Assembly: GCA_031414595.1 (NCBI GenBank)
Contig: JANNVX010000001.1
Location: 9,132-73,131 of the forward strand
DNA: 64,000 bases
Origin: Deinococcales bacterium
GTDB lineage: Bacteria > Deinococcota > Deinococci > Deinococcales > JAAFIG01
Direction of reading: 5' to 3'
Shown: piece after piece, positions 1-63,328 of the stretch
Layout of the letters: every line of letters starts with the position of its first letter
Position numbering within the stretch: position 1 is the first letter of the stretch
Translations under genes and position numbers: made by a program
The notes under the pieces: generated by a model
Seen by the model: only the letters and a program-made list of their open reading frames with translations
What the model was told of the DNA's origin: nothing
Databases searched by the model: none

Positions 1-301
1 TGGCTTCGGCTTGATGCGGACGCTTCTCGGCAGGGGTTAAAAGTAATTCGCCAAACGCCCCGTACTGCCCAACTACCCCGAGAATTGCTTCTTTGCCATT
101 AGGAAATAATTTAGAAATTTTAACCAAACCATTGCGTACAAAATAAATCGCATCCGCCAAGTCATCCATATGATAAATCACATCACCCGCCGAAAAACGA
201 CGATACGGTGTGGTCTTAGAAAGGGTTGCTAAATCCTCGAGTTCCCAGTCCTCGAAAAGACTGGTACTCTTTAAGTGCCAAACAAGACTAGGGAATTCCA
301 C
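1..301 (-). CDS. Crp/Fnr family transcriptional regulator (5' part; runs off window)
   Basis: Manual translation from GTG at 301: MEFPSLVWHLKSTSLFEDWELEDL...GDVIYHMDDLADAIYFVRNGLVKISKLFPNGKEAILGVVGQYGAFGE, a cNMP-binding domain pattern. Confidence 0.85.
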   Translation of the reverse strand, partial: MEFPSLVWHLKSTSLFEDWELEDLATLSKTTPYRRFSAGDVIYHMDDLADAIYFVRNGLVKISKLFPNGKEAILGVVGQYGAFGELLLTPAEKRPHQAEA

Positions 302-407
302 AGCGACAGTCTACAACTTAAGATGTGCTTTGCGCTTGAAAAAGCAATTGTAAGTTGGACTTCAATAAGAGAATTCTAGGTATTTTATGCCAAATGCTCG
401 AGACGGC

Positions 408-902
408 TTAAAGCGGCAAATACCATAACAAATCCAAAGCTGGTGGCTTAAAACCTTGTTGGCGAATCAGCAGTGCAATTTGGGCTGTGTGCCGAACCTC
501 ATGCTGCATCACATGCCAAAGTAAACCTTCGACAGTTCGTTCTTCTTCAACAATTCTCGAGAGTTCGCCAGTCTCTAATCTCTCGAGAAACCCCAAGGTA
601 CTCGCTTCTACATTTTTCCAGTAAGATAAAATCGTCTCGAGCGGCGTATCGGCAAAAAACACACCATCTTGCAGTAGGGCTTCTGGCAAATCCGATTTCC
701 ACACGGGTGTATCACGCAAAATATCCTCATGAATCCAAGAATCTTCAACTGCCGCAATGTGCATCAGTAAATCCTTAATGCAGTGAAAACGCTCGGCGGG
801 AATCATGTTTTTGGATAAGACTTCATCGGGCAAGCTCTCGAGAACAGCCCATAAATCGCGTCTGGCTCGGGTTAAATATCGGTAAAAAGTTTGTATATTC
901 AT
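408..902 (-). CDS. DinB family protein
   Basis: IKDLLMHIAAVE...LLWHVMQHEVRHTAQI His motifs of DinB/YfiT. Confidence 0.85.
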   Translation of the reverse strand: MNIQTFYRYLTRARRDLWAVLESLPDEVLSKNMIPAERFHCIKDLLMHIAAVEDSWIHEDILRDTPVWKSDLPEALLQDGVFFADTPLETILSYWKNVEASTLGFLERLETGELSRIVEEERTVEGLLWHVMQHEVRHTAQIALLIRQQGFKPPALDLLWYLPL

Positions 903-909
903 ATGCGCC

Positions 910-1338
910 TCAATTCAAATCCTCGAGCCACGGGTTAAGCACAGGAACAAAACCCTCGAAATCAGTGGTGTTTCTTGTTACAACAACCGCATCTAGTACG
1001 ATTGCTGTTGCCGCAATCCAAGAATCCGAATAGTCCATTGTTTTACCCAGATGTATCGCTCTGCTGGTTATTTCTGCCCAGGTAGCCGCGATTTCTCGAT
1101 CTATAGCAATAATATTCCCAAAATACTCCTGCTCGAGATTTGCCAACCAGTCACGGTAAGTTTTGGCACGTTTTGATTTACCTAAAAGTAAAATGCCTTG
1201 TTCGATTTCCGCAATGCTAACAACACTAATTAGGCAATTAGAAATTTTTTGATCTGATAACCAATCAATCACACCAACATCTGGTTTTGGTTTGGTTTGC
1301 TCGGATATAACATTAGTATCAAATACAAAACGTTTCAT
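910..1338 (-). CDS. vapC: Type II TA toxin, VapC/PIN domain
   Basis: FVFDTNVISE, SIAEI, DSWIAATA, VVTRNTTDF PIN motifs; 4-bp overlap with antitoxin. Confidence 0.9.
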   Translation of the reverse strand: MKRFVFDTNVISEQTKPKPDVGVIDWLSDQKISNCLISVVSIAEIEQGILLLGKSKRAKTYRDWLANLEQEYFGNIIAIDREIAATWAEITSRAIHLGKTMDYSDSWIAATAIVLDAVVVTRNTTDFEGFVPVLNPWLEDLN

Positions 1339-1580
1339 CCGAGTTTCACGGGTTTCACTGGCGAATTACGACGATAAATCTTCAACTCACCTTTTGGCGC
1401 ACCTGCTAACCCCTCAAGTGCCGATTTGCTTTTTTGTTGTAAACGCACATAGTCTGCATGAGACATCACCACGGCTGTTTGCTCACCACGTTTAGTTATA
1501 ACTTGGGCTTCGCCTGCCGCAGCAAGTTCGATGACTTCACTAAATTTTGCTTTTGCTTCTTGCAGTTGCCAATTTCGCAT
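1335..1580 (-). CDS. Phd/YefM family antitoxin
   Basis: WQLQEAKAKFSEVIELA...QVITKRG; start ATG 1580 or GTG 1589. Confidence 0.88.
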   Translation of the reverse strand: MRNWQLQEAKAKFSEVIELAAAGEAQVITKRGEQTAVVMSHADYVRLQQKSKSALEGLAGAPKGELKIYRRNSPVKPVKLG

Positions 1581-1591
1581 ATCAATCACTC

Positions 1592-1609
1592 CTGACTAGA
1601 ACTGGTCAG
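1592..1609. promoter_or_regulatory. Probable TA autorepression operator
   Basis: Palindrome CTGACTAG-AA-CTGGTCAG immediately upstream of the antitoxin. Confidence 0.55.
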
Positions 1610-1661
1610 AGTATATACCCTAACGCTAAAAATCACCAAACAGCCATAAAAGGATTCTGGA

Positions 1662-2561
1662 TTAGAAAAAACCATCAGCATCCTCGAGAATTGCTTTTAT
1701 CGAATGCGAGGCAATACCAGTCAGCACAGGATTGGTGTTCATATAGTACGGATATGCAAATGCTGCAAAACGCAACGCCACACCAGCCGAACGCAGCCAA
1801 GTTGCATCGTCTAACTCGAGGGCATCCCGAAAAATACCTCGAGCGGGTTGGTCAAGTAGCATCCAAGCACTGGCATAATCAAAAATTGGGTCGCCTACAC
1901 CGAGCGCTCCAAAATCCAGTACGGCACTTAAACGCCCTTGATGACAAAGTAAATTCGCGCCGTGCAAATCTCCATGTGACCAAACGGGCGTACCTTTCCA
2001 CGCTGGGGCAAGAAGCACTTTTTGCCAAATCTGCTCGAGTACATCAGGTTGGAACTTTGCGGGTAACAACGCTAAATTCTCACGCACACCTGCATCTTCA
2101 TCCGCAAACGGTTTGCCTCGAGCGGGTGGCGGATTAGCTGGAATTGGAATGCGTTGTAATGCTTGAATCAAATTGACCAAATCCAACGCCAAGGCTTCTT
2201 GGTTCTCGAGTGGTGCGTTGAATAAATCCTGCCCCTCGAGCCAAGCGTAGATACCCCAAGGGAATGGATAGGCTTCGGATGGCACTCCTCGAGTCAGCAG
2301 TTCTGGGATTTTTATAGGCAAATGCGGCGCGACAAAAGGCAACCATTTGATGTCCTTTTCGAGTGGTGCAACTGCCCAATCTATCCGAGGTAAACGCACA
2401 AGAAATGTATCCCCTAGCCGATACAAAACATTTTCTGTACCCCCTGCACTGAGTAGAAAAATCGGTAAGTCTACCCATTGTGGGAATTGAGTCTCGAGTA
2501 AGTGTTGTACCAAGTTTAGATTGATGTCTGCTTCGTCTGTGTGTAGTTTTTCTACTTGCAT
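1662..2561 (-). CDS. Aminoglycoside phosphotransferase (APH/choline kinase) family protein
   Basis: VWSHGDLHGANLL and AVLDFG motifs. Confidence 0.88.
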   Translation of the reverse strand: MQVEKLHTDEADINLNLVQHLLETQFPQWVDLPIFLLSAGGTENVLYRLGDTFLVRLPRIDWAVAPLEKDIKWLPFVAPHLPIKIPELLTRGVPSEAYPFPWGIYAWLEGQDLFNAPLENQEALALDLVNLIQALQRIPIPANPPPARGKPFADEDAGVRENLALLPAKFQPDVLEQIWQKVLLAPAWKGTPVWSHGDLHGANLLCHQGRLSAVLDFGALGVGDPIFDYASAWMLLDQPARGIFRDALELDDATWLRSAGVALRFAAFAYPYYMNTNPVLTGIASHSIKAILEDADGFF

Positions 2562-2570
2562 TATTTTCCT

Positions 2571-3050
2571 TTACGCACGGAGTGGAAGCCAAAGCGAATT
2601 CTCATCGGGCAGGGCAAACCCTTGGTCTTTTAATGCCAATAAAATCTGTCCCCGATGATGCGCGTCGTGCATTGCCATGTGCATTAGAAACTGGGCTGGA
2701 CTCGAGTGTGGCAAATTGCCTTTGCCAACTGCATTTTTGGCGGTCTCGAGAACTACGTTTTTGGTTTGGATCATCACAGACTTTATTCGCTCCAAGTTCA
2801 TTTCCGCGTCAAATTCACCTGTGTCCTCGTCGTAATTCGAGTACAAATCTGGTAATTTCTTCAACTCGCTTTCCTCGAGACGCATACCCCAGCCTTTGGT
2901 GCATTCGACCATGTGTGCAAGGTGCTGTGCCACAGTGTAGCCACCACCGGGCGTACCAGCTTCAAGCATATCTGGAGTCAGATGCTCGAGTAAAACCGCA
3001 TTGACGGCGTTATTAGTGTTCCAAGCGAATTCGATTTCTGGACTAATCAT
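2571..3050 (-). CDS. DinB family protein
   Basis: TVAQHLAHM...HMAMHDAHHRGQI. Confidence 0.85.
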   Translation of the reverse strand: MISPEIEFAWNTNNAVNAVLLEHLTPDMLEAGTPGGGYTVAQHLAHMVECTKGWGMRLEESELKKLPDLYSNYDEDTGEFDAEMNLERIKSVMIQTKNVVLETAKNAVGKGNLPHSSPAQFLMHMAMHDAHHRGQILLALKDQGFALPDENSLWLPLRA

Positions 3051-3126
3051 GCTAAACCTCTTTTTAATCTAAACAAGAATTTTTAATTGTTGAGTTGCGT
3101 GTGAACATATTAACGTTTTGGCTTGA

Positions 3127-3924
3127 TTAAGGCAAATCATCGGCTTGTTGTTTTATCTGCTCGAGAGCAAATTCAATGAATTCTAAAGTGCGTTTAACAT
3201 CATCTGGCTCGGCAAGTTTCTTGTAATTCTCGCGTTGAATGGCGTGTTCTTGCCAAGCAATGGCAATTAAATCATGCCAACGAGCCTCGAGATTCTGGCA
3301 ACCCCACAGTGCTGCCGAGCGCTTAGATTTGACTTGCGCTGTGGCTAATGTCTCGAGCATCCGACAGTACGAAAGAACTACAGATTGCTGATACCAACGG
3401 GTGTCTATTTTGGTTGGAGACTCGAGAATTTCTGCTCCCCAGTTTTGCATGACTGCGCTAACCTCGAGTTTTAATTGATCGGCTACCACAGGTTCAATCA
3501 GGGGTTTGGCATCTGCGCCATCCAAAGAAATACCATACTCCCTTGTTGTGTACCGAGTCACCAATGTGTTGCAATGCGTGTCCAGAATCAGTTCGTGGCT
3601 GCCATTATCTAAGTACCAAAGTGGGATGCTGGTATCTGTTTCTTGCAGCACTTTTTGACTGATGTACGACCCCTCGAGATGCTGCGCCCAAGCTGAAGGT
3701 AACGCATAAATTCTTTTGTGCATGGCTTGTAGTTCGGGCAGTAAATCCGTGGGTAATTCATCTTGTAGGACAATTAGAAAGTCAACATCACTGTGCAAAT
3801 CCCAATCGCCAAGCGCAAACGAACCTTGTAAGTAGGCTGCGATAAGCTCTGAGCCAAGAATCTGTTTGGCGCTTTGGATTAACTCGAGTAGAACATCGTT
3901 TAATTCGGGTACTAAAGTTTTCAT
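3127..3924 (-). CDS. Pol-beta nucleotidyltransferase, aminoglycoside adenylyltransferase-like (DUF4111-type)
   Basis: YLQGSFALGDWDLHSDVDFLIV; C-terminal VLSYCRML...SKRSAALW. Confidence 0.75.
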   Translation of the reverse strand: MKTLVPELNDVLLELIQSAKQILGSELIAAYLQGSFALGDWDLHSDVDFLIVLQDELPTDLLPELQAMHKRIYALPSAWAQHLEGSYISQKVLQETDTSIPLWYLDNGSHELILDTHCNTLVTRYTTREYGISLDGADAKPLIEPVVADQLKLEVSAVMQNWGAEILESPTKIDTRWYQQSVVLSYCRMLETLATAQVKSKRSAALWGCQNLEARWHDLIAIAWQEHAIQRENYKKLAEPDDVKRTLEFIEFALEQIKQQADDLP

Positions 3925-5147: not shown

Positions 5148-5183
5148 TATGTTTCTCCTTAATTAAAAGGGGTATGGTGAGTC

Positions 5184-5558
5184 ATGGCTGAAACTTTAGA
5201 ACTCAAACTATCCGAACTCGAGAATTTGCAAGTCAGTAAGCGCTTAGTAGGTGGCAAAGAAATTTTGTTGTACCGAAGTGATAACACCGTCAGTGCCATC
5301 TCGAGCAAGTGTTCGCATTTGAATGTCGCATTGCCAGCCAAAGCCGTCAATGGGATCATTACCTGTGGTTTCCACGGCGCACAATTTGACGCTAAAACTG
5401 GGGCTTGTTTGGTCGGGGCGCTTGGCAAGGACTGGCAGAAATCCACACCATTGGGAATTGGGGCATTGGCGGCGGCACTGATTCCAAAGAAGAATTCGCC
5501 AGACCTCGAGCGGTTTACCGTCGAAATTATTGGTGAAAACATGCGTGTGACGGTCTGA
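5184..5558 (+). CDS. Rieske [2Fe-2S] ferredoxin
   Basis: CSH...CGFHGAQFD Rieske motif. Confidence 0.85.
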   Translation: MAETLELKLSELENLQVSKRLVGGKEILLYRSDNTVSAISSKCSHLNVALPAKAVNGIITCGFHGAQFDAKTGACLVGALGKDWQKSTPLGIGALAAALIPKKNSPDLERFTVEIIGENMRVTV

Positions 5559-5559
5559 T

Positions 5560-5946
5560 TCATAACTGGATTAGCCCAGCTTTGGTTGGTCTAAAACCAC
5601 ACTTTTGGTAAAACGGCTCGAGGTGGTCTTCAAAATCCGCATGAACCCATTCGCAACCGTGCTGTTTGGCAAATGCCACCGCTCGAGCCAACAGTTCTTG
5701 TCCAATGCCACGGCGTTTGTAATCCTCGTGAACTGAAGGGTCGAGCAAAAACGCATGAACCCCAGCATCACCGATGAGTTTTACAAAACCTATCAGTCTC
5801 GAGCCATCAAAAGCACAAACGTAACACATCGTAGCCTCGAGTTCAGGTTGAAAATCTATGTTGGAAGGTTTACCCCATGCCGAAAAGAAAAGCTCATTCA
5901 GGGCGGTGTTCTCGAGCGGTGGACTGATTGCGTACTTTATGTTCAT
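5560..5946 (-). CDS. GNAT acetyltransferase
   Basis: VHEDYKRRGIGQELL...FYQKCGF; start moved to ATG 5946 with SD AAGGAG. Confidence 0.88.
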   Translation of the reverse strand: MNIKYAISPPLENTALNELFFSAWGKPSNIDFQPELEATMCYVCAFDGSRLIGFVKLIGDAGVHAFLLDPSVHEDYKRRGIGQELLARAVAFAKQHGCEWVHADFEDHLEPFYQKCGFRPTKAGLIQL

Positions 5947-13621: not shown

Positions 13622-16600
13622 ATGGAACGGATGTCTGTCACCACGTTATCGCGTTATCAAGTGGTCAAGGAACTCGGCGCGGGAGCAATGGGTCGGGTCT
13701 CTTTGGCGTTGGATACAGCAACCGGCGAATTGGTGGCACTCAAACGTTTACACGAAATGGTGGCTTTGCAAGGTGGCGCTCGCTTGCGGCGTGAATCCAA
13801 GGCTTTAGAACGAATTAATGACCCCAATGTGGTTAAGGTGCTGGGTTACGGCGAAGATGAAGGCATTCCGTACTTGGTGATGGAATACGTCCGAGGCACA
13901 GATTTAACCCAGTTTGTAACTGAAAAACCGACCATAGACCGAATTGTGCAAGTCTTTATCGGCATTTGCAACGCACTGGCAGCCGTGCATGGACAAGGTA
14001 TTATTCATAGGGACTTAAAACCAGACAATATCCGTGTAACCCTTGAAGGCGACGCTAAACTGATGGACTTTGGTTTGGCAAAATCCTTAGAAGGCACGGT
14101 TGCCTTGACTCGAGCCGGTGCAGTGGTTGGTACGGTCTTGTATATGGCACCCGAGCAGTGCAGGGGCGCTCAACTCGATTACCGTGCCGACTTGTACGCG
14201 CTGGGTGCAGTTTTATTTTGGGCTTTAACGGGCAGACCACCATTTACTGGCGACGGGCTTGCCCAAGTGATTATGCAGCACATTCAAGCCCCACCGCCCA
14301 GACCGAGCAGCATCAATCCAAGTATCCCCGCGCCACTTGAACAGATCGTCTTAAAACTGATGGAAAAAAATCCTGCCGAGCGCCCACCCAGTGCTTTAGC
14401 AGTCCGTGACCTTTTAATTGGTTTGTCGAATCAAACCATGGAAATTAACCTTTCAACCGAAGTGGCTCGAGCCGATGCGCTCCTTATTGCTCCGCTCATT
14501 GGGCGCGATGCCGAAATCGGTTTGCTGATGCCGCTTTTAGAAGAACCCGAACCAGTTTATGGGGTGTATGCAATTACAGGTGATGTTGGCACAGGAAAAA
14601 CTCGGTTAATCAAAGCCTTTTCAGAAACCGCCAGAGGCGCTGGAACACGTTTTGCCCCCGGAGAAGCCATTCCAGACGACCCAACCCCTTTTGGCGCAAT
14701 CTCGAGAATGATTGGCAACTTGCAAAAAAGCAATAAGAACTTTGTCGAGAACCTACCCGAGAACATCAAAGGCGAATTGGCACGGATTGTGCCGAGTCTA
14801 GGCAGTGCTGCCCCAAGCGACCCGAACCTTCCAGCCGATGTTGCCAGGTTACGCTTATTTGAAGCCTTTAGCGAATTCTTAGAACGGGTTTCTGAGATTA
14901 CCGTGGTGGTTCTCGAGAATTTGCACTGGGCAGACGACAGCACCTTAGCAGCCCTTGCCCATGCCACTCGAGCCGTACAGAAACCACGTTTATTGGTCAC
15001 ATATCGGCTGGAGGATTTACCCGAAGGTCAAACCCTGCCCAAAGGCTTAGCCCGTCCGAGAACCCTGATTAACCTTAAACCAATGTCGGACAACGACATG
15101 CGTGAACTCTTAAAATCATGGTTGGATGGCGACCTTGACAGCACTTTAGAAACCGAATTGGTCAATCATGCGGCTGGCAACCCTTGGGTTCTCGAGGAAC
15201 GCTTAAAAGCAATGCTTGAATCTGGGGCAATTTATCGTCAGAACGGGGTCTACCAATGGCAGCACTCGATGCAGAGCTTGCCCGAGAGCCTGAACGATTT
15301 GCTCGCCCACCGCATCGAAGCCTTAAAACCAGATAGCCTCGAATTTGCCCGTGCTGCCAGTGTGCTTGGCAGGGCATGGCAGTACGAAGATGTACGGCAA
15401 CTGCTTGAATGGGGCGATGACACTGCCCTCGATGCCTTAGAAAGCCTGACTCGAGCCAGACTCGTCACCGAAATCCCCGGTAGCAACGGCGAAGGTTTTA
15501 GATTTACCCACCCGCTCTATAGCGAAATTCTACTTGACGGTATCATCAGCCTCAAACGCCGTCGTCTGCACAAAAAAGCCGCCATCCTGCTCGAGAACCG
15601 CGCCAGTCCAGTCGAACTTGCCAATCATCATTTTTATGCCGAGCAGTTTGAACAAGCCCTAACAAAAGCCGTTGAAGGTGGCTTAATTGCCCAGAGCAGC
15701 TTTGCGTACCCGCAAGCCGAACGCGCCTACCGTTTGGCACTTGAAGCCAATGCCAAATTAGCAACCGAATCGCTCAAGGCTTTTGAAGCCCGTTTGCACT
15801 TGGGTGAAGTATTGAGCCACTCGGGACGCAACGACGAAGCCATTGCTTTCTGGCAATATGTGATAGACAACGCGGCTACACTCGAGGGCAGCCAGAGCGT
15901 ATTGGCTCAAACCCGCTTAAAATTTGGCAATGTGCTGCGTTTTTCGGGTTCGGTGGACAAAGCCCGCGATATTATTGGGCAGTACGGTATAGACGACCCG
16001 TTTTATGAAGAACTGGAAATCGAAGCCAGTCATATCCACCGCTTAAAAAAAGATTTTATGACCGCCAAACACCACGGACTCGAGGCGTTACGTGCCAGTA
16101 AACTTGCCCAAAATCCGCGTGGAACAGCACGGGCATTACTTGCTTTATCGCAACTCGAGGTGGCGTTGGGGAATTTAAGCCGAGCCACCAACCTTGCAAA
16201 AATTGCCACCACGATTGTCGAAACCACCGATGATGATTACCTAAAAACAATGGCATGGAATGACCTTGGCAGCCGTTACTACATGTTAGACCAACAAAAA
16301 GAACTGCTTTTTGCTTGGAATAAAGCCAGTGAATACGCCCAAAAAACAGGGGATGTTCGCTCGAGAATTGTGATTCAAACCAATCTGGCGCTCTCGATTG
16401 CTTCCGAAGAAGACTTTGAAGAAGCCAGAACCCGTTTCAAAGCCACCCGAGAAATGGCACTCCGAGCGGGGCTGTACGCCCAAGAAAAAACAATTCTCTA
16501 TAACCTTGCCGAAACAGAATATGCGCTTGGCAACCTCGAAGTCGCCAGAGAACACTTTCAAGATGTCAAAAATAACGCTTATGAAAATGCTTCTAAAATT

Positions 16601-17038
16601 TGGGAATCCCGCATTACCTTAGAACTCGGCGATGGTTTTGTCTTTGAATTGCCCGAACTCGAAGGGCGTTTTGCCACCGAAAACAGGCGTTTACTCGAGG
16701 TGCTGTACGCCCTGTCCTTTGGCGATTACGAAAAAGCCTATGAAGACACCAGTCAAAGCAACACCGAACAAGATTGGTTCTGGAATTTGTCCCGGGTTCA
16801 TGCAGCTTGGCGATTAGGACACGACACCAGTCAAGCCTTGGCTGCACTGCGCCAACCTCCAGCCGAAACCAAATTAGCTCCACATTTGCGATTAGCCTAT
16901 CTTGATTTTGTACAACAACTCCTGCTCGAGAACACACCTGAACGAATCAAAACGCTGCGAATTCTCGCCGATAAATACCGAACTTCCAGTGTTGGCTTAC
17001 TGGCGCGTGATGTACTTTTGACCTTACCAGAGGGCTAA
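13622..17038 (+). CDS. Ser/Thr kinase - P-loop NTPase (STAND-like) - TPR multidomain protein
   Basis: LGAGAMG, VALK, HRDLKPDN, DFG, YMAPEQ; GDVGTGKT, VVLENLHWAD, GNP, FTHPL; helical repeat C-terminus. Confidence 0.9.
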   Translation: MERMSVTTLSRYQVVKELGAGAMGRVSLALDTATGELVALKRLHEMVALQGGARLRRESKALERINDPNVVKVLGYGEDEGIPYLVMEYVRGTDLTQFVTEKPTIDRIVQVFIGICNALAAVHGQGIIHRDLKPDNIRVTLEGDAKLMDFGLAKSLEGTVALTRAGAVVGTVLYMAPEQCRGAQLDYRADLYALGAVLFWALTGRPPFTGDGLAQVIMQHIQAPPPRPSSINPSIPAPLEQIVLKLMEKNPAERPPSALAVRDLLIGLSNQTMEINLSTEVARADALLIAPLIGRDAEIGLLMPLLEEPEPVYGVYAITGDVGTGKTRLIKAFSETARGAGTRFAPGEAIPDDPTPFGAISRMIGNLQKSNKNFVENLPENIKGELARIVPSLGSAAPSDPNLPADVARLRLFEAFSEFLERVSEITVVVLENLHWADDSTLAALAHATRAVQKPRLLVTYRLEDLPEGQTLPKGLARPRTLINLKPMSDNDMRELLKSWLDGDLDSTLETELVNHAAGNPWVLEERLKAMLESGAIYRQNGVYQWQHSMQSLPESLNDLLAHRIEALKPDSLEFARAASVLGRAWQYEDVRQLLEWGDDTALDALESLTRARLVTEIPGSNGEGFRFTHPLYSEILLDGIISLKRRRLHKKAAILLENRASPVELANHHFYAEQFEQALTKAVEGGLIAQSSFAYPQAERAYRLALEANAKLATESLKAFEARLHLGEVLSHSGRNDEAIAFWQYVIDNAATLEGSQSVLAQTRLKFGNVLRFSGSVDKARDIIGQYGIDDPFYEELEIEASHIHRLKKDFMTAKHHGLEALRASKLAQNPRGTARALLALSQLEVALGNLSRATNLAKIATTIVETTDDDYLKTMAWNDLGSRYYMLDQQKELLFAWNKASEYAQKTGDVRSRIVIQTNLALSIASEEDFEEARTRFKATREMALRAGLYAQEKTILYNLAETEYALGNLEVAREHFQDVKNNAYENASKIWESRITLELGDGFVFELPELEGRFATENRRLLEVLYALSFGDYEKAYEDTSQSNTEQDWFWNLSRVHAAWRLGHDTSQALAALRQPPAETKLAPHLRLAYLDFVQQLLLENTPERIKTLRILADKYRTSSVGLLARDVLLTLPEG

Positions 17039-17105: not shown

Positions 17106-17789
17106 ATGAAAATGAAAGTTATGTTGGGTTTGGTCGCCGTTTCGTTACTCGCTTCGTGTGGTTTGATTAAAACCCCACCAATTGTTTTACAAGACACCAC
17201 CAAAACACCCAACCCTACCGTTGGCGGTGGAGCGCTTGGAATTGATGGTAAGGGTGCGCCGCTTGACCTCTCTAAAGGCGGTATCGCGCTTCAAGGCACA
17301 AAAAATGGGGTTGTGATTGCATCAGGTACATTTGCTGATGTCACAGACCAACAAGTTAAAGACAATATTGCCCGTTTAGCTGAATGGGGCTACACCCAAA
17401 CCATGCCAACCGCAACTTTGAGCGGTGCAAATTGCCCCGCCAGCTTTGCCATGACCAATGCCAGCTTTACAGCCACAATCAGCGACGCAGGTGGGACTGC
17501 TGGAGCAACCCGCAGCGCTTCAGCCACAACCAGTGTTGCTTCGGTTAGCTTTGCTGCACAATCAGCTGGAGGCTGTACCTACAATGCCACCGTCAATGGC
17601 GCGGCGGCAGCAGTTACAGGGATTTTAACAGGAACAGGACTCGCAACCCTTGGTCAAATTATCATCAATGGTGGCGCTAATACTGCCAGCCTGACAGGTA
17701 CATACACCACCCCAGACACATTGGCTGGTCGCACCCTAACCATCAACTTTGGTGGCTCGAGTTCGTATGTGATTGCCACAATCCTCTAA
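17106..17789 (+). CDS. Hypothetical lipoprotein (Thr/Ala/Gly rich)
   Basis: SD AAGGAGG; lipobox LLASC. Confidence 0.75.
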   Translation: MKMKVMLGLVAVSLLASCGLIKTPPIVLQDTTKTPNPTVGGGALGIDGKGAPLDLSKGGIALQGTKNGVVIASGTFADVTDQQVKDNIARLAEWGYTQTMPTATLSGANCPASFAMTNASFTATISDAGGTAGATRSASATTSVASVSFAAQSAGGCTYNATVNGAAAAVTGILTGTGLATLGQIIINGGANTASLTGTYTTPDTLAGRTLTINFGGSSSYVIATIL

Positions 17790-17798
17790 ATTTAGCCT

Positions 17799-17832
17799 AA
17801 AAAAAGACAAGCCAATTGGCTTGTCTTTTTTT
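17799..17832. terminator. Bidirectional hairpin terminator
   Basis: AAAAAAGACAAGCCAATTGGCTTGTCTTTTTT. Confidence 0.75.
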
Positions 17833-17913
17833 ATTCTTGGTGCAGTTTTTAGGCTTCTCGAGCCGCCAAAAATTCCTTACTCAAGATATTCAAATCGGTT
17901 AAACTTTATTGCA

Positions 17914-18744
17914 ATGCAGACATTCTTGTTTGGCGAGGACATACCCAGTGTTAAAGAGTTATCGCCACCACTTAAATGGGCTGGTGGCAAACGTTGGCTT
18001 GTGCCACAATTGCGCGAGGTTTGGGCGCACCATGCCCACCGTCGTTTGGTAGAACCTTTTTCGGGCGGATTAGCCATTGCTTTAGGTTTGATGCCTAAAG
18101 ATGCACTCTTAAACGACATTAACCCGCATCTCATCAACTTCTATCACTGGTTACAAAAAGGATTAAAGCTCGAGTTAAAACCACAACACGACGAAACTTA
18201 TTTTTACCAAAAACGGCAACGGTTTAACGATTTGGTGCTGACTAAGCAAGAAACAAGCCAAGAAGCCGCCGAGCTTTTCTATTATTTGAATCGCACCTGC
18301 TTTAATGGGTTATGTCGTTTTAACAAAAGTGGCGGCTTCAATGTGCCGTTTGGCAAATACACAACCATTAACTACGCAACTGACTTCCTCGAGTACCGAA
18401 GTCTCGTGCAGTCTTGGAATTTCACCATCGGAGACTTCGAGAAAATCACCCTTGAGCCTGATGATTTTGTCTATGCCGACCCGCCATACGATGTTGAATT
18501 CACCACCTATAGTGCTGGTGGCTTCACATGGGATGACCAAATTCGGGTTGCCAGATGGTTAGCCGCTCATACAGGGGTAGTCATCACTTCTAATCAAGCC
18601 ACACCAAGAATTATTGACCTTTACACCCAACTTGGTTTTCAAATAAAAACACTCGAAGCACCACGCCGCATCTCATCATCTGGCGACAGAACCCCAGCCC
18701 TTGAAATGCTGGCGTATAGGAACACAATATGGAACGAGAAATAG
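17914..18744 (+). CDS. Dam-family (D12, alpha-group) N6-adenine DNA methyltransferase
   Basis: LKWAGGK, EPFSGG, NDIN, YLNRTCFNGL.RFN..GGFNVPFG, YADPPY. Confidence 0.92.
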   Translation: MQTFLFGEDIPSVKELSPPLKWAGGKRWLVPQLREVWAHHAHRRLVEPFSGGLAIALGLMPKDALLNDINPHLINFYHWLQKGLKLELKPQHDETYFYQKRQRFNDLVLTKQETSQEAAELFYYLNRTCFNGLCRFNKSGGFNVPFGKYTTINYATDFLEYRSLVQSWNFTIGDFEKITLEPDDFVYADPPYDVEFTTYSAGGFTWDDQIRVARWLAAHTGVVITSNQATPRIIDLYTQLGFQIKTLEAPRRISSSGDRTPALEMLAYRNTIWNEK

Positions 18745-19354: not shown

Positions 19355-19717
19355 TTAGAAGATTGGTTCGTCTTTGATGGTGGCAACTTCTAGTGGCAAC
19401 TGTACAGCCAGCCAATGCGGTAAATTCATCGTTAGTTCTTTTACAGGTAAGTCTAATAGTGGTAAGTGAAAACCGTACTGATGACCTTCTGGTAAGCAGT
19501 ACAGCGCAGCAATACGCAATTGACAAACCATTTCAGAATCGTTGGAAAGCCAGAAATCTATGTCATCATTAATTTGATAATCTAATGTTTCTTTGTCGTA
19601 CCAGACACCAACAGAAGCCAAATGAGTTTTCAATGGATGCTCATTTAAGTTTAGAGCCTGAACTTGGGTTGGATTGAGACCATTTGTAAAAGCAACTTGA
19701 ATTTGCGTTTCAGACAT
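19355..19717 (-). CDS. Hypothetical protein (120 aa)
   Basis: ATG 19717 with SD GAGGT; AT-rich; no motif recognised. Confidence 0.5.
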   Translation of the reverse strand: MSETQIQVAFTNGLNPTQVQALNLNEHPLKTHLASVGVWYDKETLDYQINDDIDFWLSNDSEMVCQLRIAALYCLPEGHQYGFHLPLLDLPVKELTMNLPHWLAVQLPLEVATIKDEPIF

Positions 19718-19815
19718 AATTACACCTCTAAAGCAGTATAGCATAATTATTACCAAAAAACCATAAACAGAAGTTTTTATTTTTGCAAATAAACGAATGT
19801 TGAGTTTCCCATTTT

Positions 19816-19848
19816 TTAAACTTTGACCGAAGCAGCCATGTTTTTCAT
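19816..19848 (-). pseudogene. Probable AbiEii toxin N-terminal remnant (MKNMAASVKV*)
   Basis: ATGA overlap with the AbiEi stop; resembles typical AbiEii N-termini (KN.AASV...). Confidence 0.55.
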
Positions 19849-20453
19849 GCCAGTACCGTTTCGGTATAAGAACGCATTTTTTGTTCGACCAAGCAGACTT
19901 TGGCGGCGGCAAAAAGTTTTTTTAAGTCACGGTCGGAATGGTTTAAGTAGCTTTTTAAGGCTTCAAGAAAAATACTTCGTTCAATCCGGTGACTTAAATG
20001 CAGCACGTCAGCTAAAGTTTTTTCTTTGGAATAAATCCGAATTTGTCCGCCACCAACAGCATAGGTTTGGATACCATACTCAAATTGTTGAGGCGAAAAA
20101 TAGTACAAAGCAAGCGGGGGATACTCGAGTTTAGGACGACGAGCTTTATTGGCAATGGCTAAGTGAATTTCAGATGGTACAACCGTCCCTAACTGATAAA
20201 AAGCCAAAGCTGAAAGGCAACAAATCACCGCCTTGGGAATTCGCAGCATCACCTCGAGCAAATGGTCTTGGTCTGTACCAGCACTACCAACCAAGCGGTA
20301 CACACCGTACTGAGTGCGTTCCAACAAACCAAGTTTGGTGTAGTAAGAAAGCCAATGGGCTGGCAAATCAGTCCCTTGAATCATTTTGGTGGACACCAAA
20401 CCGTGATGCTGAGCAAATAGGCTCGAAAGGGCTTGTGGTAGAACAGTATTCAT
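19845..20453 (-). CDS. Type IV TA antitoxin AbiEi family
   Basis: GLLER..YGVYRL, AVICCLSAL.FYQL, IYSKEKTLAD. Confidence 0.88.
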   Translation of the reverse strand: MNTVLPQALSSLFAQHHGLVSTKMIQGTDLPAHWLSYYTKLGLLERTQYGVYRLVGSAGTDQDHLLEVMLRIPKAVICCLSALAFYQLGTVVPSEIHLAIANKARRPKLEYPPLALYYFSPQQFEYGIQTYAVGGGQIRIYSKEKTLADVLHLSHRIERSIFLEALKSYLNHSDRDLKKLFAAAKVCLVEQKMRSYTETVLA

Positions 20454-20494
20454 AAAGTGTCGGTAGTTTACCATAATTACCGACACTTTATGAA
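20449..20494. promoter_or_regulatory. 17-bp perfect inverted repeat, probable AbiEi operator
   Basis: TTCATAAAGTGTCGGTA-N12-TACCGACACTTTATGAA overlapping the AbiEi start. Confidence 0.75.
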
Positions 20495-37700: not shown

Positions 37701-37940
37701 GCCATCCTCCTAGGTGTAGCTATACCAAAAACCCGAATTGAGTGTCTTGGTTCTCCAAGCATTTGCTTTGAGTTGTGCTAACACCGCTAACATATCAGGC
37801 AAAGTAACCAACGTCAAGCCATTTGGCTTAAGCCATTTTAACGTATATGACGCGCCAAAACGCATTTGTTGACACAGCCTTGACACAAAAAAGGAGTCTC
37901 GAGAAATTTCGAGACCCTGTTGTATTGCAAGTTCAGTGTG

Positions 37941-39446: not shown

Positions 39447-39459
39447 TGTGTGTATCGTA

Positions 39460-42259: not shown

Positions 42260-42410
42260 AAATCACCTCGGTAGTGGCATTACGAACCTCACGGTGTTTC
42301 GATTTTAATGCCTTGTGCAACCATTCTACCGCAAAAGGGTAAGGGAATAAGTCACATGGCGAGTTATTCGGCTATGAGGTAGACGTTATTCTCGAGAATC
42401 CCTAAACTCG

Positions 42411-57188: not shown

Positions 57189-57268
57189 GGGTACATTCTA
57201 ACTGGGCTGGACATCAGAAAATCAAAAATAGGTTTGTGGGCAATTGAATGCAGTACAATGTTGCCAAG

Positions 57269-58528
57269 ATGTATGTAAAAAGTGTTAAATTTACCAATTT
57301 ACGTTGCTTCAAAGCAGGAGAGTTGGATTTTCGTTATCCAGGCGATGGAGAAGTATTGCTTGATGGAGTGCCGAATAATGTGAATGTGATTCTTGGGGTG
57401 AATGCTTCGGGTAAAACCACAGTGTTAAAAGCCATCGCATTGGCGTTATTGGCGCAATTGCCATCTACAGGATTTGTACCAGATTCGCTTGTCAGACAGT
57501 ACAAAACAGCGCGTGAGGCAAAATTTGCAGAGGTAACATTAAATATCCAAGCAAATACTGAGGAAATATCACGCCTCAAAGCTCGAGTCACTAAGCATTC
57601 TCAGATAGAAGAAATTTCTTCTGAAGATACATCTCAAGATTTATCGTTTTACGAAGAAGTTTCGGTTGATTATTTTCTTGTCGCTTATGGGGCTAATCGC
57701 AGAGCCGAATCAGGTGATTTTTCTTTATCTACAAGGCGAAAATCGCGTTCAGTAAGATACGATAGAATTGCCAGTATTTTTGAAGAACATTTGGCGCTTT
57801 TACCAATTCAGTCATGGTTATATGTTGCAACTGAGCAAGAAGAACGGAAAACCAAGAGATCCATACAAAGAGATGGAGAAAGATACCGATTTTTAGATAA
57901 ACTTCTACCAAAAGATATTCAATTGCTTCTTATAAAATCTGCACAATTTCTTCAGAACGAGGTAGAAAGACAATTTACGGCATTACCAGACGGTTATCGT
58001 GCTTATATAAGTTGGTTGGTGGATTTACTGTACCAAATGAGTTCAGCTTGTCCTAAAAACGTTAAACTAGCAGAATTACAGGGTGTTGTCATGGTGGACG
58101 AAATAGACTCACATGTCCATCCGTCTTGGCAAAAAACCATTGTTTCGCAAATTGCTAATGCCTTTCCAAATCTTCAATTCATTTTTACAACCCATAGCCC
58201 AATTGTAGCTGGGTCGGTCTCGCGCCAAAATCTTTGGATTACTAAAATTGCCCCTGATGGTAGTAGCATTCTCGAGCGTCCGCATACCGAAATTTATGGT
58301 TTAAGTGCTGACCAAATTCTGACTTCTGATATTTTTGGTTTAGAATCCACTCGACCTGAAAAATTTTTGAAGCAAATGGATGCACTCGAGCAGAAAGCAG
58401 TTCGTGGTGATTCAAAAGCAGCGCTTGATTTAATGCGTGGTATGGCTTTGGGAAGAGGGGCAATTGAGTCTGAAGAAACGCCTGCTTGGGTTATACAACC
58501 CGCTAAAAAGTCTCGTAAAAAATCATGA
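57269..58528 (+). CDS. ABC-type AAA ATPase, PtuA/Septu-like
   Basis: NLRCF, GVNASGKTT, YGANR, LPDGY, VDEIDSHVHPSWQ, TTHSP. Confidence 0.82.
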   Translation: MYVKSVKFTNLRCFKAGELDFRYPGDGEVLLDGVPNNVNVILGVNASGKTTVLKAIALALLAQLPSTGFVPDSLVRQYKTAREAKFAEVTLNIQANTEEISRLKARVTKHSQIEEISSEDTSQDLSFYEEVSVDYFLVAYGANRRAESGDFSLSTRRKSRSVRYDRIASIFEEHLALLPIQSWLYVATEQEERKTKRSIQRDGERYRFLDKLLPKDIQLLLIKSAQFLQNEVERQFTALPDGYRAYISWLVDLLYQMSSACPKNVKLAELQGVVMVDEIDSHVHPSWQKTIVSQIANAFPNLQFIFTTHSPIVAGSVSRQNLWITKIAPDGSSILERPHTEIYGLSADQILTSDIFGLESTRPEKFLKQMDALEQKAVRGDSKAALDLMRGMALGRGAIESEETPAWVIQPAKKSRKKS

Positions 58529-59379
58529 TTTGGATTGAGCGTGATTTAGAAACAATAAAACGCCAAGTGGATGCACTTGTTCCAACTTGGCATTCTCGAG
58601 CCAAGCGGCGTAGCGCTAAAATCAACAAAAAAGCCGTTTACGAAGAGAAAACCTCGATTTGGAGTGAAGTCAAACCCATTTTTATGTACTTGCAGCAAAA
58701 TCGCTGTGTTTATTGTGATCGTTTTATTGCTAATTCAGAAGTAGGTTCGGTGGAACATGACCTTGAACATTATCGTCCAAAAGGTCGGGTGACGGAAGAG
58801 GATGGGAGTTACACAAGGGGTTATTATTGGTTGGCTTACGATCTCGAAAATTTTTCGGTGGCTTGTAAAACCTGTAATCAAGGCTTAAAAAAAGACAGTT
58901 TTCCTATTGCTGGAACTCGCGGTACAGTCCCTACAGCTATTAGCAGCCTGAATCAAACTGAATTGCCGTTACTTCTTTTTCCATTGGTGGATAATCCAGA
59001 TGAATTCTTAACTTTTAATGGTGTGACACCAACCCCAAAGTTTAAGCGAGGTTTGAAGCATCAACGCGCCCAAGTCACCATAGATTTTTTTCGATTAGCA
59101 GATACAGAACGCGAAGAATTGCACGATGCACGCTCACTGGCATTGGTTTTGCTCTGGCAAGCAGTTCGGAATTCAGAATTATCAACTGATGCTGCCGAGC
59201 TACAACGAAACTTGGAGTTCGTGGAAACCATGTGTAGCCCTGTATTTCCGCATTCAATGTGTACAAAAGCGTTTTATCTTCTTATAAAATCAGATCGAAT
59301 AAAAGCAGAAGAGTTCTATCTGAAAGCCCATAAGCATGTTGTTTCAAAGAAATTATTTTCCACACCTATTCAACCCTAG
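58525..59379 (+). CDS. HNH endonuclease, PtuB-like
   Basis: CVYCD, EHYRPK, YYWLAY..EN...ACKTCNQ..K...FP; ATGA overlap with the ATPase. Confidence 0.82.
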   Translation: MIWIERDLETIKRQVDALVPTWHSRAKRRSAKINKKAVYEEKTSIWSEVKPIFMYLQQNRCVYCDRFIANSEVGSVEHDLEHYRPKGRVTEEDGSYTRGYYWLAYDLENFSVACKTCNQGLKKDSFPIAGTRGTVPTAISSLNQTELPLLLFPLVDNPDEFLTFNGVTPTPKFKRGLKHQRAQVTIDFFRLADTEREELHDARSLALVLLWQAVRNSELSTDAAELQRNLEFVETMCSPVFPHSMCTKAFYLLIKSDRIKAEEFYLKAHKHVVSKKLFSTPIQP

Positions 59380-60607: not shown

Positions 60608-60623
60608 TGACAACCTCGAGCCT

Positions 60624-61235
60624 TCATCCTCTAAACCCGCCCTCGAGAAACCGCAAGCGATCAAACTCGGCTTTTAAGGTGTCCGAAGCGCGAATCCCAA
60701 CTCGAGCCATCAACGAATTCCCGGGGTAATAGGCAATTTCGGGGTCATCGGTTCTAAAGACTTCAAAACCAACACTTGAATACATGCGCTCGAGTAACTT
60801 ACGGTAGGCATGACTGGTTAAACCTGTGTTGTCCAAATCAAAATGCCATTGGTAAATCGTGGCAATCACAATTTTATCATGGTAACGCCCAGTAGCCACC
60901 CCAACCTCGAGCAGTGTTCGCGCTAAATGCCGTCCACGATGGGTTTTACTGGTTTCTACAGCCCCCAACTCGAGTAAGCCCGAGACTTTAGATTGTGACC
61001 AGCGTTCAATCTCGTCTGGCGGATGAAAAGTGGCATAACCAACGATTCGGTGCGCCATTTTTGCAATGCAAACACAACTGTTGTCAGAATTGGCAATGCT
61101 GACCAAGGCATTTTTCTGCTCTTCGGGTTGCCTAAAGACATCAAGGCTCGAGTCCATTTCAAGCCGTTCAATCAGATTCGGGTCGGCACATGGCAGCACT
61201 TCGATACTGCCATAAGGACTCGAGATTAAACGCAT
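60624..61235 (-). CDS. acuA: AcuA-like GNAT protein acetyltransferase
   Basis: VGYATFHPPDEIERW, ELGAVE, YQWHFDL, TDDPEI. Confidence 0.85.
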   Translation of the reverse strand: MRLISSPYGSIEVLPCADPNLIERLEMDSSLDVFRQPEEQKNALVSIANSDNSCVCIAKMAHRIVGYATFHPPDEIERWSQSKVSGLLELGAVETSKTHRGRHLARTLLEVGVATGRYHDKIVIATIYQWHFDLDNTGLTSHAYRKLLERMYSSVGFEVFRTDDPEIAYYPGNSLMARVGIRASDTLKAEFDRLRFLEGGFRG

Positions 61236-61486
61236 AGCGGTATTCTAACGTTTTGGTAAGTGTCTTGTGCATGACCAAAATTAGCTGTTCTAGCCTCAAA
61301 AAATTAAGTACCCACCAACTCGAGTCGCACTTCACGCCCAAGCCGTGCTTCAAGCGTAATCAGCATCTCGAGACTAAATTTTTCGTGCTTGCCACGCATC
61401 AAATCCGAAACCCGAGATTGAGCAATACCCAGTTCTGCCACTGCTTGGGCTTGACGCAACAACCCAGATGCGGCAAAATACCAAGT

Positions 61487-61714
61487 GGCGTTGAATCGCA
61501 GGAAGTACCACGGAGTTCAGTCCTTAGCGAGTTGCGGATGGTGAAAGCGCAACGATAAGAACCGTGCGAAAGGCAGCGAGGAGCTTGTAATGCAAAGTGT
61601 CTCGAGTACACAGACAGTGGTCTCGAGGAACTGGGGTGGAACCGCGCAGAGAGTGCTGATTTTCTTCAGCCTGCGTCCCCAGATGGCAAACCTAAAGCCG
61701 TCTGGCTTTCTTGT
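61487..61714 (+). ncRNA. T-box riboswitch, Gly (GGC) specifier
   Basis: AGCGA...GGTGAAA distal loop, GAAA-GGC-A specifier, T-box AACTGGGGTGGAACCGCG (61629-61646), terminator CCAGATGGC...GCCGTCTGG-CTTTCTT. Confidence 0.9.
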
Positions 61715-61732
61715 ATGCCAAAAGGAGGCTTC

Positions 61733-63328
61733 ATGCCCGCACAAACAATGGAAGAACTGGTCAGCTTGTGTAAACGCCGTGGCTTTATTTTCCCCGGCTC
61801 GGATATTTACGGTGGACTTCAAGGCACATACGATTTTGGTCCACTTGGTGTGGAACTGAAAAACAACCTCAAAGCCGCATGGTGGCGTTCGATGATTTAC
61901 GAACGCGATGATGTTGAAGGCTTAGACTCGAGCATCCTGACCCATAAATTGGTGCTGCGCCACTCGGGACACGAAGCCACGTTCTCCGACCCATTGGTGG
62001 ACAACCGTGAAAGTAAAAAACGTTACCGCTTAGATCATTTACTAAAAGAACAAGTGAATGTTATTCCTAACGGGATTTTGCTTCAAAATTATGCAGACAT
62101 AATCACTAAAGAGATTCAAGCAAAACTCGCAACACTACAAAATCCCACCCCCTTTGTTGGCGAGTCAGAGCTTGGACCAATCCAAGAAACTCTATTGCCG
62201 TGGTTACTCAAAAATCCAGAAAAAGCACAAGAGCTTCTTAATTTAGCCAAGATAATAGACCCTGAAAGTGGTAAACCTGGTGATTGGACTGCGCCCCGTG
62301 CTTTTAACATGATGTTCAAAACAACCGTAGGTCCTGTGGTAGACGAAGAAAATTATGCTTACTTACGCCCAGAAACTGCCCAAGGTATTTTTGTGAACTT
62401 CAAAAACGTAGTAGATAGCACCTCGAGAAAACTACCTTTTGGCATTGCCCAAATTGGCAAGTCATTTCGCAACGAAATTACGCCACGCAACTTTATTTTT
62501 CGGGTGCGCGAGTTTGAACAAATGGAACTCGAGTTCTTCTGCGTCCCCGGCACAGACGAAGCATGGCACGACCAGTGGCTCGAGGCTCGGATTGAATGGT
62601 GGCTGAGTGTCGGGCTTTCTCGAGACCGCATCCAGATTCTGGATGTCCCAAAAGAAGATTTATCGCATTACAGCAAACGCACCTACGACCTGATGTACCA
62701 ATACCCAAGCCTTGGCTTTGAAGAAATCGAGGGCATTGCCAACCGCACCGATTACGACCTAGGTTCGCACACCAAAAACCAAGAATCATTTGGGATACAA
62801 GCCAAAGTCGAACCGAACACCGACAGCACCGAAAAACTGAGTATTGCCCACCCAGAGACCCAAAAACCCTTGATTCCATTTGTGATTGAACCCTCTGCGG
62901 GTGTTGACCGTGGCGTGCTGGCAGTGCTGACCGAGGCGTACACCAAAGAAACCCTCGAGAATGGCGAAGAACGGATTGTGCTAAAACTCCGTCCGCACCT
63001 CGCGCCGATTAAAGTGGCGGTTATTCCGCTTGCCAAGAACCGTGAAGAAATTACTTCGGTGGCAAGGGGCTTAAAAAATAGATTGCAAAAGCTCGGGCTT
63101 GGGCGGGTGCTGTATGAAGACACAGGCAACATTGGCAAGGCGTACAGGCGGCACGACGAAGTTGGCACACCGTTTTGTATTACGGTGGACTTTGACACCA
63201 TTGGACAAGGCAAAGACGGCGACTCGAGCCTGATGGATACTGTGACCATCCGAGACCGCGACACGATGGCGCAACAACGACTGCATATGAATGACCTCGA
63301 GCAATTCTTGCGTGAGAAATTACGGTGA
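61733..63328 (+). CDS. glyS: Glycine-tRNA ligase, alpha2 type
   Basis: [51 protein letters not shown]. Confidence 0.96.

Follow-up and report, generated by a model that had tools for sequence, protein, structure and literature searches.

We analyzed a 64-kb stretch of DNA from a Deinococcales bacterium (contig JANNVX010000001.1; hereafter the window), in which the palindromic hexamer CTCGAG is repeated at very high density, together with the genome that contains it (G000), a 4.49-Mb metagenome-assembled genome (MAG) of 120 contigs that is 94% complete. G000 belongs to an uncultured family of Deinococcales represented here by 19 species-level genomes from five genera (hereafter, this family). 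A preliminary description of the window, made from the sequence alone, had proposed that CTCGAG is a highly iterated palindrome comparable to HIP1 of cyanobacteria, based on a manual count of 21 copies in bases 1–3000. Our computed list contains exactly 21 copies in this interval and 306 in the window, relative to a mean of 7.67 copies (sd 2.94; maximum 15) in 100 dinucleotide-preserving shuffles, none of which reached the observed count. No copy is found beyond position 63300, and the GC-content of the window is 44–50% (4-kb windows). The whole of G000 presents 23,235 copies, i.e., one per 193 bases and 23.9 times the number expected from composition. No other hexamer is as frequent in this genome, where the runner-up palindrome reaches an observed/expected ratio of 2.15, and all 120 contigs carry at least 2.3 copies per kb (2.3–8.6). 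These results confirm that the enrichment is real in the window and in the genome, and we consider it almost certain that, at the descriptive level, CTCGAG belongs to the highly iterated palindromes (HIPs).

The repeated unit is the bare hexamer, because the bases beside it are close to background in G000 and show no flank preference. CTCGAG accounts for 69% of all occurrences of TCGA. Its transversion neighbours are found at 0.17–0.69 of expectation; its T-variant is not depleted, with 2,325 copies of CTTGAG and CTCAAG taken together relative to about 2,172 expected (approximately 1.07). Most other palindromes are strongly avoided in this genome: 34 of the 64 palindromic hexamers are present at no more than 0.1 of expectation and 47 at no more than 0.3, and we counted 0 copies of GGGCCC, 152 of GGCC and 6 of GAGCTC.

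Such a pattern could result from an artefact of assembly, binning or chimera formation, and the preliminary description would have abandoned its claim had the word been absent from the raw data. The sites were recovered in independent contigs: Logan contigs from two runs, possibly those of the source samples, presented 0 differences relative to window positions 1–10000, and short contigs of a second study match some CTCGAG-bearing stretches exactly. In addition, the same density was observed in 13 named loci of MAGs that numerous projects had generated and in the 18 other genomes of this family. The independent contigs and the separately assembled MAGs refute the artefact, to which we attach practically no probability. 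We did not find a 16S gene in the 120-contig MAG.

We further analyzed the position of CTCGAG relative to coding frames, using the longest non-overlapping open reading frames (ORFs) of at least 100 aa, defined without a gene caller (3,832 ORFs and 3.93 Mb in G000; 60 ORFs in the window). The word was expected from the preliminary description to occur in all three frames and in non-coding DNA, without being a simple dipeptide bias, and this is what we observed. Relative to synonymous shuffles within each gene of G000, the frame CTC-GAG presents 12,065 copies for 1,301 expected (9.3-fold), nCT-CGA-G 3,981 for 412 (9.7-fold) and nnC-TCG-AGn 4,280 for 267 (16.0-fold). The same frames contain 167, 61 and 53 copies in the ORFs of the window, relative to 15.2, 5.8 and 3.7 in shuffles, which yields a total of 281 copies against a mean of 24.7 and a largest value of 38 in 200 synonymous shuffles. 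The density in G000 is 5.37 copies per kb outside ORFs and 5.17 inside. The enrichment therefore neither vanished under synonymous shuffling nor remained limited to one frame.

These counts bear on the possibility that the word merely follows from the usage of codons, codon pairs or Leu-Glu, in which case proteins would need Leu-Glu and the genome would prefer the codons CTC and GAG. Consistent with a coding origin, 59% of the coding copies lie in the frame CTC-GAG, and Thermus-like genomes raise CTCGAG and its reverse, GAGCTC, about equally. This explanation is nevertheless hardly credible given the enrichment of every frame over synonymous shuffles and the equal density outside ORFs. Moreover, the commonest Leu and Glu codons of G000 are TTA and GAA, not CTC and GAG, and CTCGAG contains half of the CTC and GAG codons of this genome. 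Leu-Glu is the top dipeptide, at 2.22 times expectation, and 12,065 of its 20,112 occurrences in G000 ORFs (60%) are written as CTCGAG; Glu-Leu remains at 0.98 of expectation and the scarcity of GAGCTC in G000 also argues against a coding by-product. Overall, 19,965 of the 38,542 protein-neutral opportunities for CTCGAG are taken (52%). The synonymous shuffles and the codon analysis of Leu-Glu refute codon or dipeptide usage as the cause, and show that CTCGAG acts at the DNA level and has pushed the proteome towards Leu-Glu.

We compared orthologous sites between G000 and its closest relative, G005, for which 83 stretches (359 kb) were aligned to G000. From 163 high-scoring segment pairs (HSPs), 114 were kept (at least 500 bases, at least 80% identical and non-overlapping), for a total of 301,638 aligned bases with 92.9% identity. 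The two genomes have 1,402 CTCGAG sites in common, whereas 167 are found in G000 only and 157 in G005 only, such that gain approximately equals loss. With a conservation of 0.894, CTCGAG ranks first among 1,214 hexamer classes (median 0.719), and its sites decay about three times slower than other hexamers. Conservation extends to more distant relatives: when we aligned window positions 21001–41000 to the seven other genomes of the genus (HSPs shorter than 400 bases were dropped), 85–56% of CTCGAG sites were kept relative to 58–17% for other hexamers, and third codon positions were identical in 92–73% of cases inside CTCGAG and in 77–47% outside.

The differences between G000 and G005 also inform on how sites are gained and lost. 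One-off differences (n = 201) are mostly transitions and are distributed among CTTGAG/CTCAAG (80), TTCGAG (67), CCCGAG (31) and all transversions together (23). The rate of C/T differences at the central CpG is about 0.026 in CTCGAG relative to 0.0645 for TCG elsewhere; the central CpG is not hypermutable, because the rate of change at each position of the word is below that of an identical base in an identical context outside it. Multi-base differences are more frequent at gained or lost CTCGAG sites (0.38) than in control hexamers (0.279). This excess is explained by locally divergent segments (flank divergence of 0.139 relative to 0.066 overall) and does not provide evidence for one-step conversion.

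The distribution of the word across Deinococcota indicates a property of a lineage. The nearest relatives of the glycine-tRNA ligase encoded in the window come from MAGs labelled Deinococcales or Deinococcota, in agreement with the phylum supposed in the preliminary description. All 13 named loci of Deinococcales MAGs, with GC-contents from 43% to 59%, contain 4.4–7.4 CTCGAG per kb; none of the 67 loci belonging to other groups exceeds 1.35 per kb. Each of the 19 family genomes presents 31–117 matches to a double-site pattern relative to 0 for a control pattern. We extended the search to a sample of 120 near-complete Deinococcota genomes, whose groups are designated here by codes, with GAGCTC as the control word. 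The 63 genomes that are Deinococcus-like by their size (g7) are depleted, with 26–1,010 CTCGAG each. The 23 Thermus-like genomes (g9; about 2.2 Mb) possess about 1,500–2,500 copies with similar numbers of the control word; their level represents a codon effect, since GAGCTC is raised about equally. Finally, 18 genomes of the genera g13, g14 and g15 contain 3,336–12,522 copies, with far lower numbers of the control word, and a single genome (G019) contains 6,990 copies relative to 62 of the control word. Pieces of 38–100 kb from each of four of these genomes present 1.65–3.6 CTCGAG per kb (observed/expected 5–10), with every frame above synonymous shuffles, an equal density outside ORFs and 34–74% of Leu-Glu written as CTCGAG. 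A weaker form of the enrichment (1.6–3.6 per kb) is thus present in several other genera of Deinococcales. In a named and cultured relative, Allomeiothermus silvanus, the value is modest for the first 50 kb of pMESIL01 (1.26 per kb; observed/expected 3.7), a plasmid that may not represent the chromosome.

We also considered viral contigs as carriers of the word. Among the matches listed in a scan for three close copies, 27 of 80 viral loci of at least 2 kb contain two or more extra CTCGAG per kb. The richest among these matches have a GC-content of 64–72% and are equally rich in GAGCTC, which suggests that they probably represent a codon effect. Viral carriage was not retained; no link to the Deinococcales clade emerged from these matches. 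Two of the viral contigs, IMGVR_UViG_3300044681_000429 (L377/L378) and IMGVR_UViG_3300037245_001406 (L399), present 7–9 CTCGAG per kb over 4 kb at 64–68% GC; GAGCTC is just as abundant in them, and they probably do not represent the phenomenon seen in Deinococcales.

The likeness to HIP1 made by the preliminary description holds. Of the four possible agents that it listed (orphan methylation of the XhoI/PaeR7I type, biased repair, a DNA-uptake signal and chromosome organization), the first finds no support in this family. We searched G000 and five other family genomes for methylases of five Pfam classes (PF01555, PF07669, PF02384, PF00145 and PF02086) and checked orthology by tblastn and blastp. 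G000 encodes more than 20 methylase genes: five C5 enzymes, eight PF01555-class hits, two TaqI-like, three HsdM, three type IIG and one D12 enzyme. No methylase orthologue was common to the six genomes, or to the five taken without G000; PF01555 methylases are missing from G013 (a single contig) and C5 methylases from G010. Two enzymes of G000 belong to the TaqI/PaeR7I class, and they recur in only 3 and 2 of the 18 other family members. XhoI-family nucleases (PF04555) yielded 0 matches in G000, as did Vsr nucleases (PF03852) in all 19 family genomes, although the Vsr model does match control genomes. A quick tree of C5 methylases was built from 45 enzymes picked from 79 ORFs by their PCQ and ENV motifs (34 ORFs, including split genes, were dropped). 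It comprises at least 20 deep lineages, and no clade spans two or more genera with one member per genome. One C5 methylase, on contig C22 of G000, is orphan-like, and its closest solved relative is M.HhaI (catalytic half only). This gene was not found in the other four family genera or in any of the 120 other Deinococcota genomes (E 1e-40). Judging from these distributions, a vertically inherited orphan methyltransferase is apparently not the agent in this family.

XhoI-family nucleases were detected in only three of the 121 Deinococcota genomes sampled, and one of them is broken. They belong to other Deinococcales and are each adjacent to a methylase (L311 in G021, L310 in G084 and L312 in G104); these genomes still contain 1.7–2.0 CTCGAG per kb. 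The methylase of G104 is intact, whereas stop codons interrupt its nuclease gene. The adjacent methylases, either a 340-aa PF01555 type (two genomes) or a TaqI-like type, are probably CTCGAG methylases. Used as probes, they revealed no close homologue in G000 or in this family: the best G000 match is 24–26% identical for the gamma type, and for the beta type is limited to a motif of 60–76 aa. Relatives of the gamma enzyme with 50–53% identity were found in 5 of the 18 genomes of g13–g15 only, and this family presents only paralogues with 26–31% identity, in 4 of 19 genomes. We rejected the XhoI-linked methylases as the agent, since they are patchily distributed and do not track the enrichment. 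The D12-class adenine methylase of the window was also rejected: it lies beside a MutH/Sau3AI-like gene, is at most 28% identical to the D12 enzymes of other family genomes, without any orthologue, and probably belongs to a GATC restriction-modification system. GATC is found at 0.14 of expectation in G000.

These searches weigh on the model that Elhai proposed for HIP1, in which a methylase marks the word (here CTCGAG or TCGA), a repair step that is methyl-directed or specific for mismatches converts near-misses and the word is a neutral by-product. HIP1 and alternate HIPs go together with cognate methylases (PMC4390886). The many methylase genes of G000, the C5 methylases found across this family, the housekeeping synteny of the orphan-like C5 gene within the genus, the presence of XhoI-type systems in the order within genomes that keep the word, and the deficit of transversion neighbours would all be compatible with such a process. 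We nonetheless consider it unlikely. No methylase is shared by the six genomes compared, the C5 enzymes are scattered among deep lineages, the genus-wide orphan was not detected in the rest of the phylum sample and the XhoI-linked gamma enzyme is patchy. The lack of Vsr and the stable central CpG do not favor biased repair either, nor does a drive acting on each site separately predict the effect of neighbour distance reported below.

A more specific version invokes very-short-patch repair: a C5 methylase would mark the inner C, and a Vsr-like nuclease would overcorrect T:G mismatches in CTTGAG to CTCGAG. CTTGAG/CTCAAG is indeed the commonest one-off difference, and C5 methylases are common in this family. 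However, this variant would be expected to be depleted, which is not the case, and TTCGAG and CCCGAG are also frequent among the differences and lie outside this route. In E. coli, the effect of very-short-patch repair on word counts is small, and a drive that acts on one neighbour hardly gives a 24-fold excess. Given in addition the absence of Vsr from the family, we regard this explanation as highly improbable.

The spacing of the sites provides further information. Gaps between CTCGAG copies in G000 are near-exponential (mean 191; coefficient of variation (CV) 0.99), but gaps shorter than 18 bases are found at 0.3–0.5 of expectation and gaps longer than 2 kb are in excess (11 relative to 0.7 expected). 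The use of potential sites depends on the distance to the nearest other copy. In G000 ORFs, 67–69% of Leu-Glu are written as CTCGAG when this distance is 72–300 bases, and this fraction decreases to 59–60% at 36–72 bases, 52% at 18–36, 35% at 12–18 and 25% at 6–12 bases. Neighbouring sites thus repel each other below about 70 bp, and the spacing is more even (CV 0.871) than under random use of the same opportunities (1.016 ± 0.011). This short-range repulsion argues against a purely per-site repair drive. Close pairs (12–36 bp) are commoner outside ORFs (21%) than inside (9.5%), which fits a use as hairpin stems, as in the T-box described below, with avoidance inside genes. Pairs exactly 7 bases apart (CTCGAGnCTCGAG) occur 101 times, relative to 17–49 times at neighbouring distances; their contexts are unrelated, with any of the four bases in the middle.

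The 11 longest CTCGAG-free gaps that we examined are islands of low GC-content. Their genes encode polysaccharide synthesis, a PT-HINT toxin with SUKH immunity, an ABC-3C CTD12/DUF2326 pair, NOV_C, WD40, pilins and defence-like functions. These islands look like recently acquired DNA, a flexible genome that is still without the word. The patchily distributed methylase genes of G000, for their part, hold CTCGAG at normal density.

We propose that each CTCGAG would be a weakly favored docking site for a hypothetical palindrome-reading protein, which would bind double-stranded DNA, probably as a dimer, and that the favored quantity would be the local density of CTCGAG rather than any single site. 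Docking-density selection would explain why a nearby copy lowers the use of a possible site and why the density is similar at 43% and 59% GC. Four features fit density selection better than a neutral repair drive acting on each site: the neighbour-distance effect, the similar density across 43–59% GC, the balance of gain and loss and the empty foreign islands. We give an even chance to density-dependent selection, rather than a neutral per-site drive, as the force that maintains the word.

We consider three candidate uses of such a reader. It might serve to recognize own-kind DNA during uptake or recombination, which is possible although we would not expect it; a role of this type is now argued for HIP1 (PMC13756078; bioRxiv 10.1101/2024.09.10.611283). 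The competence channel ComEC (PF03772) of G000 would be permissive only, given that the same model matches 10 of 14 control genomes. Nucleoid organization appears about equally plausible, hence also rather unlikely when taken alone, and the marking of strands or of self DNA for repair still less so. A broader version of the proposal would be that CTCGAG is a methylase-independent tag of own-kind DNA, read by an undescribed palindrome-binding system of several Deinococcales families, kept at a set density at any GC-content, and lost or turned into a restriction target in Deinococcus-like and Thermus-like genera. This version is tentative, and we regard it as somewhat doubtful. If true, the upkeep of density would have altered over ten thousand dipeptides in each proteome, and iterated palindromes would represent a general and convergent form of chromosome marking, such that HIP1 would be no cyanobacterial oddity.

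A rival explanation would be protection of the Chi type, in which CTCGAG would halt the degradation of own DNA by a helicase-nuclease. The lack of CTCGAG in foreign islands would agree with it, and short and dense Chi words exist in other bacteria. Chi words are, however, asymmetric and strand-skewed, and are read by RecBCD or AddAB, whereas CTCGAG is palindromic. AddAB-like pairs with a PDDEXK_1 nuclease domain were found in Thermus-like genomes that lack the enrichment; no such pair was found in 6 of 18 family genomes, and G000 yielded only a hit of 256 aa. AddAB-like genes do not follow the enrichment, and we rejected this idea as having no phyletic support; a Chi-like role is in our view very unlikely.

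Several points weigh against density selection through a reader. The mechanism is deduced from the pattern and its reader protein is purely hypothetical. Conservation cannot tell selection from a strong drive of biased repair: if the word occupies 60% of Leu-Glu contexts at equilibrium, a large part of the conservation observed at 73–75% identity would arise without memory of individual sites. The repulsion below about 70 bp could mean that mRNA hairpins are avoided, and not that returns diminish; the scarcity of long gaps may be an arithmetical consequence of the scarcity of short ones. A C5 methylase is present in 18 of the 19 family genomes, where isospecific enzymes that are not orthologous may act, and the orphan-like C5 gene is kept in seven of the eight genomes of the genus. 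Most of the family genomes are incomplete MAGs (57–94% complete), and our non-ORF DNA takes in small genes as a result of the longest-ORF rule. Under a maximal-order Markov model, the observed/expected ratio of CTCGAG in G000 is only 1.16. This value neither helps nor hurts, because the pentamers CTCGA and TCGAG almost always belong to CTCGAG (CTCGA occurs 25,876 times and is followed by G in 23,235 cases). Regarding uptake, known uptake signals are longer and asymmetric, Thermus-like and Deinococcus-like genera are competent although they lack the enrichment, and ComEC is nearly universal.

The features of the window and of G000 are listed in the table below. The three non-coding copies singled out in the preliminary description (11428, 37898 and 42391) are all present and lie outside ORFs; the second is kept in three of the four closest genomes and reads CTCGGG in the fourth. 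The preliminary description had also placed two copies in a T-box, and we located both of them, at 61601–61606 and 61622–61627, where they form a single helix by mutual pairing. A search of Rfam with the gathering threshold detected only a tRNA in the window and missed the T-box, whose score falls under the gathering score of 93 bits and which was recovered by an E-value search. Judging from this match, the T-box is real though sub-threshold.

Features of the window (positions without prefix) and of genome G000 (prefixed by G000 and contig)
Feature	Position	Strand	Details
CTCGAG array, 306 sites	1..63300	.	on average one per 209 bases; 281 in ORFs, 25 outside
CTCGAG outside ORFs of at least 100 aa	11428..11433	.	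one of four in spacer 11358-11757 (11428, 11498, 11573, 11615)
CTCGAG in spacer	37898..37903	.	between ABC substrate-binding gene (35952-37700, -) and tRNA (38190-38268, -)
CTCGAG in short spacer	42391..42396	.	between ORFs 40916-42259 (-) and 42411-44660 (-)
T-box leader	61482..61683	+	RF00230, 77.3 bits, E 5.9e-17; upstream of glycine-tRNA ligase gene 61715-63328 (NCBIfam)
D12-class adenine methylase gene	17773..18744	+	overlaps MutH/Sau3AI-like gene 18729-19352; unknown 236-aa ORF ahead; the three genes span 17079-19352
Ser/Thr kinase gene	13622..17038	+	1,138 aa, kinase fused to AAA_16 ATPase and TPR repeats
185-aa ORF	19355..19912	-	unknown; downstream of AbiEi-like gene and overlapping it; may be its partner
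AbiEi antitoxin-like gene	19845..20486	-	PADLOC E 1e-52
Septu defence pair	57248..59379	+	PtuA (PADLOC E 3e-122) and PtuB (E 5e-79)
Short dispersed repeats	about 21118-21390, 29501-29560, 40913-41000		50-90 bases, 85-98% alike
Orphan-like C5 methylase gene	G000:C22:27856-29055		between CBS-ACT gene and RlmKL-like gene; same neighbours in G006
ComEC gene (PF03772)	G000:C41:159371-160177		E 3e-35
CTCGAG-free islands	G000:C46:36668-41609, C30:4280-7535, C14:37566-40432, eight more		35-44% GC

Among the other genes of the window, the kinase domain of the Ser/Thr kinase fusion matches the defence models PD-T4-6 and mad6. The short dispersed repeats are present in many copies in G000, as well as in each of the seven further genomes of its genus.

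The closest known system is HIP1 (GCGATCGC) with the alternate HIPs of cyanobacteria, which are GC-rich palindromes over-represented tens of times (Elhai 2015, PMC4390886; Xu, Lawrence and Durand 2018, PMC5861425; PMC13756078). CTCGAG shares this over-representation with HIP1 and exceeds the roughly 15-fold excess that we required of a HIP; it also shares the occurrence in all frames and in non-coding DNA, the lineage-wide distribution, a conservation above that of control words and the avoidance of most other palindromes in the same genome. It differs in its length (six bases relative to eight), in the phylum in which it is found and in its density, which is about 5 per kb relative to about 1 per kb for HIP1 (PMC4390886). 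In contrast to HIP1, it takes half of the synonymous opportunities and has changed the dipeptide content of proteins. HIP1 also has DmtA and DmtC, whereas we found no lineage-conserved cognate methylase for CTCGAG.

The second comparison is with the uptake sequences of Neisseriaceae (DNA uptake sequences, DUS) and Pasteurellaceae (uptake signal sequences, USS), which are asymmetric words of 9–12 bases found about once per kb. Like these, CTCGAG is a family-wide word shared across genera, occurs in coding and non-coding DNA and is missing from foreign islands; close pairs of CTCGAG are also commoner between genes, and a competence channel is present in G000. Unlike them, it is palindromic, only six bases long and devoid of conserved flanks, with a density of 5.2 per kb. 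Restriction-modification systems of the XhoI/PaeR7I type, including the MamA system of M. smegmatis (PMC7526240), act on the same site. Restriction sites are normally avoided, as CTCGAG is in the Deinococcus-like group; it is enriched 24-fold in G000, which has neither an XhoI-family nuclease nor a close homologue of the linked methylases. Finally, the Dcm/Vsr system of E. coli (CCWGG) resembles the present case in that repair tied to a methylated palindrome skews word counts across the genome, but this family lacks Vsr, the T-variant of CTCGAG is not depleted and the effect on CTCGAG is an order of magnitude larger.

HIP1 has lacked an explanation for three decades, and its study has been confined to a single phylum. 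The full-text literature that we searched, which does not extend to subscription journals, yielded no report that CTCGAG is enriched in Deinococcota. CTCGAG constitutes a second and independent case, shorter and about five times denser than HIP1 and strong enough to shift amino-acid content. The weaker form is found in near-complete genomes of other genera, some of them probably cultured, which would bring experiments within reach. For the clade itself, codon- and dipeptide-based analyses are distorted by CTCGAG, and the word gives a clock for the residency of foreign DNA in these genomes. The comparison of the two systems shows which features of iterated palindromes are general, i.e., the presence in all frames, the conservation and the co-occurring extreme avoidance of other palindromes; the conserved cognate methylase may not be.

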